4,288 bases of DNA from a virus (IMGVR_UViG_2617270945_000001:1-4288); one strand, 5' to 3'. Positions 153 to 3,927 are shown, counted from the first letter of the stretch. Numbers and translations: made by a program. The notes: generated from the sequence alone by a model not told the origin.

Positions 153-1277
153 ATGAAGACGAAAAACACGCCCAAACTTGCTTATGCCATTCTGAATGCC
201 ATCAGCCTGTCCGCAGACGGGGACGGTGACTGGTGTCAGATCATGCCAGCCGGTCGGGTAAAGGCCCGTGACGGTCGCCCGGAAAAACCGGCGGAAGGCT
301 GGCTGATTAACCATGCGGCCGTTGAGCGCATGGTATCCGGGGTCGTGGCACTCAATCAGCCGGTGAAGATTGACTATAACCACCAGTCACTGATTGAGGG
401 GCATGCGGCACCGGCTGCCGGTTTTGTCATGGCCTCGCCGGAGAACTTCCGTTTCAGTGAAGAGCGGGGTTTTGAAGTGCGTCCGAAGTGGAACCCTCCG
501 GCCATTGAACACCTGCGCAATAACGAATTTCCCTGGTTTTCCCCGGTGATTGGTTATGACGAAATCACCGGTGAACCTGTTGAGCTCCGGATGCTGGCTA
601 TTACCGGTGACCCCGGTCTGACTGGCATGAATCCTGTCGCCGCACTGTCGGCGGATGACCTTTATAACGCCTTAAACCCTCCTTTAAAGGACACCTCCAT
701 GAATGAGCAATTACGCCAGTTGCTGACGGCGCTCGGTCTGACCGTGGCTGACGGTGACGAATTTACGCCGGAACTGGGCACGGCGGCGCTGTCTGCCCTT
801 ACCGGGATCAAAACCCGTGCGGATGCGCACGACACCCTGAAAACGCAGGTTGCCAGCCTGTCGGCAGAGCTGGAAACCGCAAAAGGCACACCAACTGGCG
901 GCACTATTGATCTGACGAAATACGTGCCCGTTGAGACGTATAACGCCCTGCGTACCGAATATGTCGCGTTGTCGGCACAACACGGCAGCACCACGCTGGA
1001 GCAGTTGCTGGATAAGGCCGAGTCCGAAGGACGCATTTTCAAAAGCGAACGCGGATACATGGAAGGACTCGGACAACAGATTGGTGTTGCGGCACTTTCT
1101 GCACAGCTTGACGCCCGCCAGCCGGTTGCGGCTCTGACCACTCTTCAGACCGACACCGTGACCGTGCCGGATAAAAAGACCGCCACCGCTGTGCTGTCGG
1201 CTGAAGATATCGCCGCCGCCCATCTGCTGGGTAAAACCGAAGCCGAGTTCCTGAAAATGAAAGAGGAAATGCAATAA
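153..1277 (+). CDS. I: Mu gpI-like prohead protease/scaffold protein (374 aa)
   Basis: Long ORF with coding-like codon usage, immediately upstream of and overlapping (TAATG) the major head gene, as in Mu. Ala/Leu/Glu-rich, coiled-coil-like C-terminal half fits a scaffold domain. Family assignment is from recalled similarity to Mu-like prophage I proteins, not a search. The SD at the 153 start is weak, but no alternative in-frame start exists between the upstream stop (126-128) and 153. Confidence 0.8.
   Translation: MKTKNTPKLAYAILNAISLSADGDGDWCQIMPAGRVKARDGRPEKPAEGWLINHAAVERMVSGVVALNQPVKIDYNHQSLIEGHAAPAAGFVMASPENFRFSEERGFEVRPKWNPPAIEHLRNNEFPWFSPVIGYDEITGEPVELRMLAITGDPGLTGMNPVAALSADDLYNALNPPLKDTSMNEQLRQLLTALGLTVADGDEFTPELGTAALSALTGIKTRADAHDTLKTQVASLSAELETAKGTPTGGTIDLTKYVPVETYNALRTEYVALSAQHGSTTLEQLLDKAESEGRIFKSERGYMEGLGQQIGVAALSAQLDARQPVAALTTLQTDTVTVPDKKTATAVLSAEDIAAAHLLGKTEAEFLKMKEEMQ
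699..1277 (+). CDS. Z: Putative nested in-frame scaffold protein (Mu gpZ-like, 193 aa) from internal initiation within the gpI-like gene
   Basis: Seen: in-frame ATG at 699 preceded by AAGGA (687-691) with 7-nt spacing; downstream region is the coiled-coil-like C-terminal part. As far as I recall, Mu scaffold Z is made by internal initiation within I; applying that here is inference. Confidence 0.4.
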   Translation: MNEQLRQLLTALGLTVADGDEFTPELGTAALSALTGIKTRADAHDTLKTQVASLSAELETAKGTPTGGTIDLTKYVPVETYNALRTEYVALSAQHGSTTLEQLLDKAESEGRIFKSERGYMEGLGQQIGVAALSAQLDARQPVAALTTLQTDTVTVPDKKTATAVLSAEDIAAAHLLGKTEAEFLKMKEEMQ

Positions 1278-2224
1278 TGCCTACCCCGATTACACCGGCG
1301 ATGATCACCGCCCTGATGACGGGCTACCGTTCTGATTTTCAGGCCGGGATGTCCATGGCTCCGTCTCAGTACCAGAAAATTGCGATGACCGTACCGTCCA
1401 CGTCGAAATCCAACACCTACGGCTGGCTTGGGCAGTTCCCGCAGTTCCGTGAGTGGATCGGCTCCCGCGTCATCGAGAAGATGAAAGCCTATGGCTACGC
1501 CATCGTGAACAAAACCTTCGAAGGCACCGTCGCCATTAGCCGCGATGACTTCGAAGACGACAATCTTGGCATCTACTCCCCGTTGTTCCAGGAGATGGGG
1601 CGCGCTGCGGCGGCACAACCGGATGAACTGGTCTTTGCTGCACTGCGTGATGGTCTGAATGCGGCCTGCTATGACGGCCAGAACTTCTTTGATACCGAAC
1701 ACCCGGTTTACCCCAAAGTGGATAGCTCCGGGGATGCACAGATGGTCAGCAATATGTTTGTGGCAAAAACCGGCTCTGTCGGTGCACAGGCGGATTACAG
1801 TGGCCCGGCCTGGTATCTGCTCGACTGCTCCCGCGCGGTAAAACCGCTGATTTATCAGGATCGCCGTAAGGCCGAACTGGTTGCCCAGACAAAAGTCGAT
1901 GAAGGCCGTGCGTTTACTGATAACGAGTTTGTGTTCGGTGCTTCCGCCCGTCGCAATGTGGGCTACGGCTTCTGGCAGATGGCCTACATGATGCAGTCAC
2001 CGCTGACGCTGGATGCGCTGTGGCACGGCTGGTCAGCCATGCGTGACTTTAAGGCTGACGGTGGCCGCAAACTCGGCATCAAACCCACCCATATTGTTGT
2101 CCCCACCTCGCTGGAAAAACAGGCGGTGCAGCTGCTGGAGCGCGAGCTGTTCGCGGACGGTAACACCACCGTCTCTAACGAGATGAAGGGCAAGCTGGAG
2201 CTGGTTGTCGCGGATTATCTGTAA
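1277..2224 (+). CDS. T: Major head (capsid) subunit, Mu gpT-like (315 aa)
   Basis: Strong SD AAGAGGAAA (1261-1269) 7 nt upstream of the ATG at 1277, which overlaps the upstream TAA by 1 nt. Codon usage is strongly biased to preferred enterobacterial codons (ctg, ccg, gcg, cgt, ggc, acc), as expected for a highly expressed capsid gene. Size and position match Mu T; family assigned from recalled similarity. Confidence 0.88.
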   Translation: MPTPITPAMITALMTGYRSDFQAGMSMAPSQYQKIAMTVPSTSKSNTYGWLGQFPQFREWIGSRVIEKMKAYGYAIVNKTFEGTVAISRDDFEDDNLGIYSPLFQEMGRAAAAQPDELVFAALRDGLNAACYDGQNFFDTEHPVYPKVDSSGDAQMVSNMFVAKTGSVGAQADYSGPAWYLLDCSRAVKPLIYQDRRKAELVAQTKVDEGRAFTDNEFVFGASARRNVGYGFWQMAYMMQSPLTLDALWHGWSAMRDFKADGGRKLGIKPTHIVVPTSLEKQAVQLLERELFADGNTTVSNEMKGKLELVVADYL

Positions 2225-2267: not shown

Positions 2268-2669
2268 ATGAATGAACATCACACTGTGGCAGCAACAGAT
2301 GATTCAGGTCTTCGGGTCAGTGGTGACAGTCCTGTCACGGTACTGGCAGAAGTGCGTTGCAGTCGTACGCAGTTTCGTCGTGCGGGGTTCCTGTTCATGC
2401 GGGGACGCCAGCAGGTTGACGTCACCCCGGAGCAGCTTGCCCGACTGGAAGCGGAGCCATGCCTCACTGTACGAATACTACAGACGACTGGTGATGATGC
2501 GGGAGCCGTGGCGGGTGTGGTTCATGCAGCGACCGGTGCAGATTTAGCTGAAGCCGAAGCCGAAGCCGAAGCCGAAGCCGAAGCCGAAGCCGAAGCCGAA
2601 GCCGGACAGGATGCTCCCCGGAAAAAGACCGGCAATAAAGCTAAACAGGAAAAAAAGGCGCGCGCATGA
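2268..2669 (+). CDS. Small protein in the Mup35 position (133 aa): N-terminal domain, (Glu-Ala)9 acidic linker, Lys-rich basic C-terminal tail
   Basis: SD GGAGG (2258-2262) 5 nt before the ATG at 2268; stop overlaps the next gene's start as ATGA (2666-2669). The open frame extends upstream to 2205, but 2268 is the first ATG with an SD. Amino-acid composition is normal for this frame, unlike the overlapping frame. Function unknown; position between T and the gp36-like gene matches Mu. Confidence 0.65.
   Translation: MNEHHTVAATDDSGLRVSGDSPVTVLAEVRCSRTQFRRAGFLFMRGRQQVDVTPEQLARLEAEPCLTVRILQTTGDDAGAVAGVVHAATGADLAEAEAEAEAEAEAEAEAEAGQDAPRKKTGNKAKQEKKARA
2547..2606 (+). repeat. In-frame hexanucleotide microsatellite: GCTGAA + (GCCGAA)x8 + GCCGGA, encoding (AE)9-AG
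   Basis: Seen directly: eight perfect tandem GCCGAA copies at 2553-2600, flanked by one degenerate unit on each side; in frame 0 it encodes alternating Ala-Glu. Confidence 0.95.
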
Positions 2670-3085
2670 ATTACGCCACCGAAACCGATATGCGGGCGCG
2701 TTACCGCGAGGATTTGCTCAGGCCATTACTGGCCGTGCCCCGTTCGGATGAACCGGACACGCGCAAGCTGAACCGGGCACTGACGGACGCGTCTGCCCTT
2801 ATCGACAGCTATCTGTCTTCCCGTTACACGCTGCCGCTGGCGGTGGTTCCGGCGGTCCTTGTTCAGCATTGCTGCACGATTGCCTTTTATTACCTGTGCG
2901 ATCAGCGGGCATCCGATCAGGCGCGTGACCGTTACCGTGAGGCGCTGGCCTGGCTGAAAGATGTCATGAACGGTAACGTGCCGGTCGGCGTGGATACAGA
3001 CGGTGCGGCCCCTGAATCCGGGGATTTACCGCAGGTGCAGTCTGATGCGGCGGTGTTCGGGCGCAACCAGAAGGGCTTTATATGA
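2666..3085 (+). CDS. Mu gp36-like protein (139 aa; gene J position), putative head completion / head-tail joining protein
   Basis: ATG at 2666 overlaps the upstream stop (ATGA); AAGG at 2655-2658 serves as SD. Stop overlaps the next start as ATGA (3082-3085). Position after T and Mup35 matches Mu gp36. Function is inferred from family and position. Confidence 0.75.
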   Translation: MNYATETDMRARYREDLLRPLLAVPRSDEPDTRKLNRALTDASALIDSYLSSRYTLPLAVVPAVLVQHCCTIAFYYLCDQRASDQARDRYREALAWLKDVMNGNVPVGVDTDGAAPESGDLPQVQSDAAVFGRNQKGFI

Positions 3086-3645
3086 TTACGGAAACCGAGC
3101 AGGCGTACATCGCCCGTATCCGTGAGTATTTCGGGAATGAACTGGTGTCTGTTGACACACATCCCGGCGACTGGAGCGACAGCGTACTGCGCACCATGCT
3201 GATTAACGCCCCGGCTATCTATGTTGCCTGGCTGGGTGCCGGTGAAGGGCGTACCCGTGGGCGTCTGGTCAGTCACTGGGTGTTCTACGTCATCGGCGAC
3301 ATGCTCAATGGCCGTGAGGTCAGCCGTCCCGGGCTTTATCAGATTGTGGCCCGCCTGATTACCGTGCTGGACGGCTTCAGAGCAGAAAAAACCTCACCGC
3401 TTTACTTTGAAAAGGCGGTCAACGGTTACACCGAAACGCAGGCAGGCAGCGGTGCCGTGATGTACGCCCTGTATTTCTCATGCGAGGAAATGATCGACCC
3501 GCTGACGGATATCAGCTCGCTGGATGATTTCCTGCGCCATTACGAAACCTTTACCGAACCGGAAGGCACGCCGGAGTTTAAGGCACACATCCGTCTGCCT
3601 GGTGCAACTGCCGCCGGTGAAAACGCCGGACCGTCAGAGGAATAA
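3082..3645 (+). CDS. Mu gp37-like protein (187 aa; gene K position), putative head/neck morphogenesis protein
   Basis: ATG at 3082 in an ATGA overlap, SD AAGGG at 3071-3075; coding-like composition; position matches Mu gp37. Exact function not determinable from sequence. Confidence 0.75.
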   Translation: MITETEQAYIARIREYFGNELVSVDTHPGDWSDSVLRTMLINAPAIYVAWLGAGEGRTRGRLVSHWVFYVIGDMLNGREVSRPGLYQIVARLITVLDGFRAEKTSPLYFEKAVNGYTETQAGSGAVMYALYFSCEEMIDPLTDISSLDDFLRHYETFTEPEGTPEFKAHIRLPGATAAGENAGPSEE

Positions 3646-3648
3646 CAG

Positions 3649-3927
3649 ATGACAACCATTTTTATTAAACCTGCGCCGGGATGCCTGATTCGCGATCCCG
3701 ACACGATGACTCCGCTCTCACAGGACGGTGAAGAGAAACCCTTCACCCCGTTCTGGTGCCGCCGTCTTAATGATGGCGACGTCATTGTGGTGGATAAAAC
3801 GGCGGAGCCTGCCCCGGCTGCCACAACTGCTAATACCGGCGAGGCTGCAAAACCAGCGGGAGCGGTAGCAGAAAAAACTGCGGCGGTGGCTGAAAAAACC
3901 GCAGCATCAGATAAGGGGACGTCCTGA
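3649..3927 (+). CDS. Small protein in the Mup38 position (92 aa) with an Ala/Lys/Thr-rich low-complexity C-terminal tail
   Basis: SD GAGGA (3637-3641) 7 nt before the ATG at 3649; its TGA overlaps the ATG of the tail sheath gene (TGATGA, 3925-3929). Contains the duplicated AVAEKTA motif. Confidence 0.65.
   Translation: MTTIFIKPAPGCLIRDPDTMTPLSQDGEEKPFTPFWCRRLNDGDVIVVDKTAEPAPAATTANTGEAAKPAGAVAEKTAAVAEKTAASDKGTS
3862..3903 (+). repeat. Two tandem 21-bp units, each encoding AVAEKTA, differing only at 4 synonymous third-codon positions
   Basis: Seen: gcg gta gca gaa aaa act gcg (3862-3882) versus gcg gtg gct gaa aaa acc gca (3883-3903), in frame with the 3649 ORF. Confidence 0.9.

Follow-up and report, generated by a model that had tools for sequence, protein, structure and literature searches.

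An array of GCCGAA hexamers lies inside a small gene beside the capsid gene in a stretch of viral DNA of 4,288 nucleotides (IMGVR_UViG_2617270945_000001:1-4288; hereafter the window, with positions counted from its first letter), and it raises the question of what the repeat is, how freely its length changes, and what the protein that carries it does. The window comes from a Mu-like prophage of Escherichia coli or Shigella and comprises its head-neck module. The array, at 2547..2606 on the plus strand, is an in-frame hexanucleotide variable number tandem repeat (VNTR) that encodes (Ala-Glu)9-Ala-Gly within the gene for a 133-amino-acid protein of the Mu gp35 / HI1506 family (2268..2669, plus strand). 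As a whole, the locus is likely to be a hypermutable VNTR that always stays in frame, known to typing laboratories as EHC-5, in a gp35 homologue with a predicted disordered tail and possibly a role at the capsid surface.

The array was delimited by direct reading and unit parsing as one GCTGAA (2547-2552), eight perfect GCCGAA units (2553-2600), and one GCCGGA (2601-2606). This agrees with the earlier note made from the DNA alone, which had counted eight perfect hexamers, or ten units with the degenerate flanks, encoding (AE)9-AG. Tandem Repeats Finder returned the same tract (2546-2604, period 6, 9.8 copies, 98% matches, score 111), and a 24-nt (GCCGAA)4 probe with at most one mismatch gave seven overlapping matches, where 200 dinucleotide shuffles gave an expectation of 0.00. 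The enclosing open reading frame (ORF) begins with an ATG preceded by GGAGG at 2257-2261. Since the Mu-type major head gene (1277-2224) stops 44 nt before it starts, its placement next to the capsid gene had been correctly described. Its product consists of 93 residues, (AE)9-AG, and then QDAPRKKTGNKAKQEKKARA, and its stop overlaps the start of the following gene in an ATGA at 2666-2669.

A chance run of low complexity, or an error of assembly, can be given practically no credence as the origin of the array. Many of the related database proteins are labelled partial and stop within or beside the array, as might be expected of an artefact. However, not one of the 200 shuffles produced any (GCCGAA)4 match, the exact 133-residue product was found on 23 public contigs, where the gene order is that of the window, closed genomes carry the array at many lengths, and typing by multiple-locus VNTR analysis (MLVA) sizes it directly by polymerase chain reaction fragment analysis. 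The partial proteins ending within or just before (AE)n include P0040, P0062, P0065, P0068, P0070, and the cluster P0120-P0133. Draft assemblies thus seem to break often at the locus, perhaps because genomes hold up to four copies with differing array lengths.

The array proved to be highly variable among prophages. The gene was carried by 229 records, corresponding to 228 of 5,426 complete E. coli genomes, where it is annotated as "HI1506-related protein", and the 204 full-length matches are annotated there as a complete protein. Length classes were tabulated for 74 of the 229 records. Within this sample, the matched span ranged from 48 bp shorter to 66 bp longer than the query and fell into 17 size classes, and the array comprised 2-21 units when the terminal GCCGGA was counted. 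All of the span differences were multiples of 6 except for one of -17, found in L010, where seven units are combined with a 1-bp indel upstream of the gene and a start shifted by one base. The ORF was intact in all 16 alleles fetched from closed E. coli genomes, and 15 of them contained a pure, uninterrupted run of 1-20 GCCGAA units followed by GCCGGA, while the sixteenth (L011) had a variant unit at its end. Variant units (AG, VE, SE, KA, and TE) were seen occasionally at the protein level. The basic C-terminal tip and the ATGA stop/start overlap were retained in the aligned alleles.

The mutability of the array relative to its surroundings was most apparent among ten O157-type loci. These differed by 0-1 mismatches over 1,900 bp downstream and by 2-17 mismatches over 2,279 bp upstream, while their arrays contained 4, 6, 7, 9, 10, 11, 12, 13, 15, and 21 units. 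Correspondingly, their neighboring proteins mostly shared RefSeq WP accessions, and the repeat protein had a different accession in each. Such differences in array length between nearly identical flanks indicate that the array is far more mutable than the surrounding DNA.

The array is almost certainly EHC-5, a locus of the Japanese MLVA typing scheme for enterohaemorrhagic E. coli (EHEC). A scheme for EHEC O157, O26, and O111 that includes EHC-5 was reportedly described by Izumiya et al. in 2010. The EHC-5 primers (forward ATACTACAGACGTCTGCTGATGA, reverse CCGCTTTGTTACCGGTCTTTTTC; S5 Table, PMC10062581) matched the ten O157-type loci (L008, L012, and L014-L021) without mismatch in either primer, immediately flanking the array, and the predicted amplicon size followed the unit number. 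None of the other primer pairs in the 18-locus MLVA table matched. In the window, the forward site (2475..2497, plus strand) has two mismatches and the reverse site (2621..2643, minus strand) has four. The window thus shares with EHC-5 the array, the gene position, the 6-bp GCCGAA unit, and a copy number that differs among isolates and genomes, but it represents a diverged allele of the Shigella sonnei / E. coli type, distinguished by the primer mismatches and by a first unit of GCTGAA.

In the tabulated Chiba and Yamagata isolates, EHC-5 took the values 0 (absent), 2, 3, 5, 6, 7, and 9-14 (PMC10062581). For example, isolates CEC18128 and CEC18136 were listed as identical at the other 16 loci and as different at EHC-5 alone, with 5 and 9 units, respectively (PMC10062581). 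In-frame variation in copy number between prophages and between isolates, which the earlier note had anticipated from the repeat itself, is therefore present; what that note had missed is that this variation is already in routine use for typing. The polymorphism is not new, since the array is EHC-5 and has long been sized by typing laboratories. The passages and tables consulted in PMC10062581 treat EHC-5 as a size marker only, with neither the gene nor the protein mentioned in them, and a literature search found no paper that discusses the gene or protein holding it. Full-text searches with the hexamer (all rotations, both strands) returned no typing paper, and literature searches on a VNTR in a Mu-like E. 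coli prophage and on HI1506 returned nothing relevant and no paper, respectively. The link to EHC-5 came only from the comparison with MLVA primer tables.

Changes in the array would arise when identical GCCGAA units mispair by strand slippage or undergo unequal exchange, whereby whole units are added or removed. As the unit equals two codons, both the reading frame and the ATGA overlap with the adaptor gene are kept. This resembles the contingency loci of Neisseria, Haemophilus, and others in that slippage occurs in a perfect short tandem repeat within a coding region. In those loci, however, the repeat has a unit length not divisible by three, or it sits within a promoter, so that expression is switched ON and OFF, whereas here length alone changes and the ORF remains open in the sampled alleles. 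With a 6-bp unit inside the ORF, differences in multiples of 6, and every fetched allele open, the array does not qualify as a phase-variable switch. Instability driven by hairpins was considered and rejected, because neither strand of the array folds better than shuffled sequences (z = +1.9 and +2.1).

Several other changes were observed within the gene. The basic C-terminal tip QDAPRKKTGNKAKQEKKARA (2607..2666, plus strand), which is predicted to be disordered, contains a second polymorphism at 2640-2666, where a 9-bp indel (KQEKKARA as opposed to KQARA or EQARA) lies beside an A7 run (2647-2653). The P0057 and P0058 alleles are frameshifted, either at this A7/indel region or at CCCCGGAAAAAG, and continue in the +1 frame. 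An alternative-frame ORF of 91 amino acids (2272-2547) ends exactly where the array begins. It was rejected as a gene, as it had no Pfam or PHROG match and the database proteins that start there are frameshift chimeras. P0076, P0082, P0083, and P0073 are among the database proteins with this frame, and several of them are chimeras of two frames; in P0073, the array is read in another frame as (KP)n before the original frame is restored. These chimeric proteins are probably frameshift mutants or sequencing errors.

The protein that carries the repeat could be assigned with high confidence to the gp35/FluMu_N family, as a member without the C-terminal domain, and is hence not an orphan. Residues 36-72 matched the Pfam domain FluMu_N (PF17891) with 36.1 bits against a gathering cutoff of 25.8, and the whole protein matched phrog_3622 (function unknown) at 2.8e-74. 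In addition, BLASTP aligned its core to Mu gp35, which has the same Pfam domain, at 6e-11, and a match was found to the HI1506 structure (PDB 2OUT). NCBIfam returned no match for the protein, though its RefSeq name is "HI1506-related". The gene also has the position typical of the family, preceded by the Mu-type major head gene and followed by the gene for the gp36 adaptor. Across Mu gp35 and relatives from Edwardsiella, Erwinia, Serratia, and Salmonella, the core is conserved as C.R..YRRAG..F.RG...V.VT..QLA.L.A.P.L.V, followed by a short linker.

Beyond this linker, the window protein departs from its relatives. Mu gp35 and HI1506 share with it the homologous N-terminal core and the gene position between head gene T and gp36, but they have two domains, the second being a helical C-terminal domain of about 50 residues (..RIR.AVA.L....P.HFT..G.PKV.AV...LG..VT..QI.AAL). 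In alignments A1 and A3, this domain is present at the aligned place in Mu gp35, P0084, P0088, and P0095 and absent from the window protein, where (AE)n and the basic tip stand in its place. The window protein is accordingly a FluMu_N-domain protein rather than a canonical two-domain gp35. At the DNA level, comparison with the two-domain Edwardsiella gene found no convincing homology past the core and linker that would point to a derivation of the tail from the C-domain by deletion or frameshift. In the distant but syntenic members P0119 (L026) and P0086 (L027), low-complexity AE/AK/AG tails with lysine ends similarly replace the C-domain, and these are encoded by different, GCGGAA-based repeat units.

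An AlphaFold2 model of the 133-residue protein, built on 22 sequences, was confident for residues 25-73 only. It predicted a beta-hairpin (25-38/41-52), a helix (54-61), and a strand (66-73), and this putative folded core of about residues 25-73 (2340..2486, plus strand) was also the part aligned by hhalign. The block-mean predicted local distance difference test score (pLDDT) was about 85-92 for residues 21-70 and 53-54 for residues 1-24, and it fell below 50 throughout residues 76-133, including residues 76-93. Disorder is thus predicted for the whole C-terminal part, which the earlier note had proposed to examine, while its N-terminal domain of about 95 residues shrinks to the core with flexible flanks. 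Neither does the acidic tract act as a linker between domains, as that note had it, because no folded domain follows; it forms part of a predicted disordered tail that replaces the helical C-domain of the family. Fold searches with the full-length model yielded weak matches only, owing to the disorder of more than half of the chain.

The protein would therefore combine a small FluMu_N core with an intrinsically disordered extension of (Ala-Glu)n and a Lys/Arg-rich tip, and the model makes it quite probable that this tail is disordered and tolerant of changes in length. The position of the repeat in such a tail would allow 1 to 20 GCCGAA units to be tolerated. With an array that is neither structured nor frame-changing, the length variation is probably near-neutral, and the broad, continuous spectrum of alleles fits this.

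The loss of the C-domain could also mean that the protein has lost its role and that the repeat is drifting in a dispensable ORF. Besides the missing domain, such decay would be consistent with the occasional frameshifted or truncated alleles (P0057, P0058, P0073, and P0083) and with rearrangement in some of the host prophages (L011). It appears very unlikely, however, as all 16 complete-genome alleles are intact and the 204 full-length matches carry complete-protein annotations, prophages with ~7-10% divergence in DNA still share a conserved core and basic tip, the stop overlaps the start of an essential adaptor gene, and the same architecture recurs in unrelated Mu-like elements.

A retained role raises the question of where the protein acts, and a candidate answer came from JBD30, a Mu-like siphophage of Pseudomonas. 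A profile of the family matched 8rkc_B/8rqe in hmmsearch at an E-value of 3.2e-4. Chain B of 8RKC/8RQE is exactly gp39, the minor capsid (decoration) protein of JBD30, named by its depositors "Mu-like prophage FluMu N-terminal domain-containing protein". In hhalign, the family aligned with gp39 at a probability of 93.3% and an E-value of 2.7e-7, residues 27-72 of the window protein pairing with gp39 57-105. The gp39 gene comes shortly after a gpT-type capsid gene and ahead of the gene for a gp36-type adaptor, and the JBD30 capsid protein is 52% identical to that of the window. By cryo-electron microscopy (cryo-EM), gp39 forms trimers on the T=7 head, at its three-fold and quasi-three-fold axes, with a beta-tadpole fold like that of T4 Soc and a disordered stretch of 52 residues at its start (PMC11445458). 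It was seen on only ~5 of 12 particles and is, in the opinion of the authors, dispensable in mild conditions (PMC11445458).

By homology, the core of the window protein may thus be a capsid decoration protein, a possibility that falls a little short of an even chance. It would dock, like gp39, at the three-fold and quasi-three-fold sites of the mature T=7 capsid, leaving the charged tail as a flexible appendage of the head, with the orientation of the tail likewise conjectural. If so, gpT is the presumed binding partner. The likeliest reading would then place the protein on the capsid surface, with a charged tail that is prone to slippage and tolerant of changes in length. The suggestion of the earlier note, that the protein is a flexible tether to an acidic capsid surface, gains plausibility from the gp39 homology and the predicted disorder. 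In common with the window protein, gp39 has a homologous FluMu_N-type core, a gpT-type gene upstream, small size, and a long, disordered, charge-segregated extension; it differs in belonging to a siphophage, in an N-terminal extension with no perfect repeat, and in an identity of ~35% over only 46 residues. The disordered N-terminus of gp39 (L028:4591-4932) is of low complexity, with a Lys-rich start followed by an Asp/Pro/Thr-rich part, and this basic-then-acidic segment mirrors the acidic-then-basic C-terminal tail of the window protein.

A number of observations weigh against this capsid-surface reading. The contact residues are only partly conserved: E91, S95, D96, and K100 of gp39 correspond to A58, A62, E63, and T67 here, and the contacts kept are limited to the acidic residue (D96 to E63) that precedes the invariant Pro and to Lys197 and Thr196 of the capsid protein. 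Capsid Lys66 is replaced by Glu in the window, with a Lys one residue on, and by Gln in Mu, and the positions of the gp39 Cys67-Cys72 disulfide are occupied by Arg37 and Leu42. JBD30 gp39 alone scored 22.5 bits, under the Pfam cutoff of 25.8, and its disordered extension is N-terminal, whereas that of the window protein is C-terminal. Cryo-EM of the Mu capsid saw no cement or decoration protein and did not locate gp35 (PMC11915804), for which loose, sub-stoichiometric binding could be the reason. The literature search found no virion proteomics on the 133-residue protein, and virion proteomics papers for SuMu and two roseophages were uninformative.

Also unfavorable to a place on the shell is the GenBank record of Mu, which labels gp35 a "head-to-tail connector complex protein", as stated in the note of the record and in a sentence citing PMID 29767456. 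The protein might accordingly belong to the neck, where its tail would contact the portal, the adaptor, or the packaged DNA end and where a VNTR would still be tolerated. The basic tip may bind DNA, and the gene is translationally coupled to the gp36-type adaptor through the ATGA overlap. On the other hand, the neck was fully built from gp29, gp36, and gp37 in the near-atomic Mu structure of 2025, leaving no unassigned gp35 (PMC11915804), and the only family member structurally placed in a virion, JBD30 gp39, is on the capsid surface. Given the partly conserved contacts, the lost disulfide, the sub-cutoff score of gp39, and the extension at the opposite end, decoration is held at just under even and the neck is regarded as a less probable, though realistic, location.

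If the capsid-surface reading holds, the variation in length could also be adaptive rather than near-neutral. The array would then be a contingency locus at the protein level that diversifies the length and charge of tails present in hundreds of copies per head, thereby tuning surface charge, aggregation, adhesion to mucus or debris, or recognition by the host or the immune system. Prophages that are nearly identical still differ widely in their arrays, which are pure and uninterrupted, but any recently active neutral VNTR would also show pure arrays, and the broad, continuous spectrum of 2-21 units is what stepwise neutral slippage is expected to produce. In favor of selection, the basic tip is conserved, and differences between diverged prophages are mostly synonymous. 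AE/AK/AG tails with Lys-rich tips have arisen in distant syntenic members from different repeat units, and JBD30 gp39 likewise has a charge-segregated disordered extension. However, no phenotype is known, and the element is for the most part passed on as a resident prophage, so that virion properties are not under continuous selection. Adaptive variation is therefore considered unlikely, and so, to about the same degree, is a "contingency coat", in which the outer face of the head would bear hundreds of slippage-diversified polyanionic tails, each ending in a basic tip and anchored by the gp35-family core. Were it true, repeat number would tune virion charge, aggregation, adhesion, or recognition, and the family would have repeatedly evolved mutable tails as an alternative to the folded C-domain in temperate phage.

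The neighboring genes of the window are those of a Mu-like head-neck module. A protease/scaffold I gene (153-1277) is followed by the Mu-type major head gene gpT (1277..2224, plus strand; Pfam Mu-like_gpT 5.3e-119), whose product is the one 52% identical to the JBD30 major capsid protein gp38. Downstream of the repeat-bearing gene lie the Mu gp36-type head-tail adaptor (2666..3085, plus strand; Pfam Phage_Mu_Gp36 6.6e-36; phrog_195, head-tail adaptor), a gp37-type tail terminator (3082-3645), a DUF2635/gp38 gene (3649-3927), and the start of a tail sheath gene (from 3927). The nearest named relatives of the 133-residue protein were partial proteins from Shigella sonnei and E. coli, and the best match in any complete E. 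coli genome reached 96.7%. Matches in the phage collection were confined to one Yersinia phage and two Shiga toxin (Stx) phage records into which a Mu-like region had been inserted. A pattern scan of genome contigs for related loci gave 600 matches, none of which was confirmed.

Several other features of the module were noted. A stem-loop with only G:C pairs and no U-run is present at 2232-2250 (-21.7 kcal/mol for 2222-2266), between the stop of the major head gene and the Shine-Dalgarno sequence of the repeat gene. At the corresponding place, Edwardsiella (L025) and Mu (L023, where it is annotated as a predicted terminator) have stem-loops of other sequence, though JBD30 does not clearly have one. 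The element may be an attenuator or mRNA stabilizer that sets the ratio of capsid to downstream expression. The DUF2635/gp38 gene encodes a low-complexity C-terminal tail of Ala, Glu, Lys, Pro, and Thr with short tandem units at about 3862-3903, consisting of AVAEKTA x2 in the window, EKPAT x2 in L002, and EKPAT x3 in L004 and L011. Its product ranges from 76 to 95 amino acids across otherwise similar prophages (L002, L004, L011, and L013 compared), making it a second length-variable tail within the head-neck module. In E. coli SCU-171 (L010), an extra minus-strand hypothetical gene lies at 3516-3782 between the gp37 and gp38 homologues, and in E. coli JKHS016 (L011), a truncated protease gene abuts a tape-measure pseudogene (1-1053). 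Some of the carriers of the locus are hence rearranged remnants.

As a polymorphic repeat, the array is nothing new, and the comparison of its copy number across isolates has in effect been done by typing laboratories for more than ten years. What is added here is a modest gain in gene and protein annotation, by which a typed VNTR is tied to a specific phage gene, the homologue of Mu gp35/HI1506. As EHC-5 scores 0 when absent, the marker also reports the carriage of a Mu-like prophage. The tolerance of the locus for 1-20 units would be explained by a disordered tail and a two-codon unit. Finally, the link between the Mu gp35 family and a capsid decoration protein of defined structure yields a specific hypothesis, open to test, for a protein that was not placed by the recent cryo-EM of Mu.
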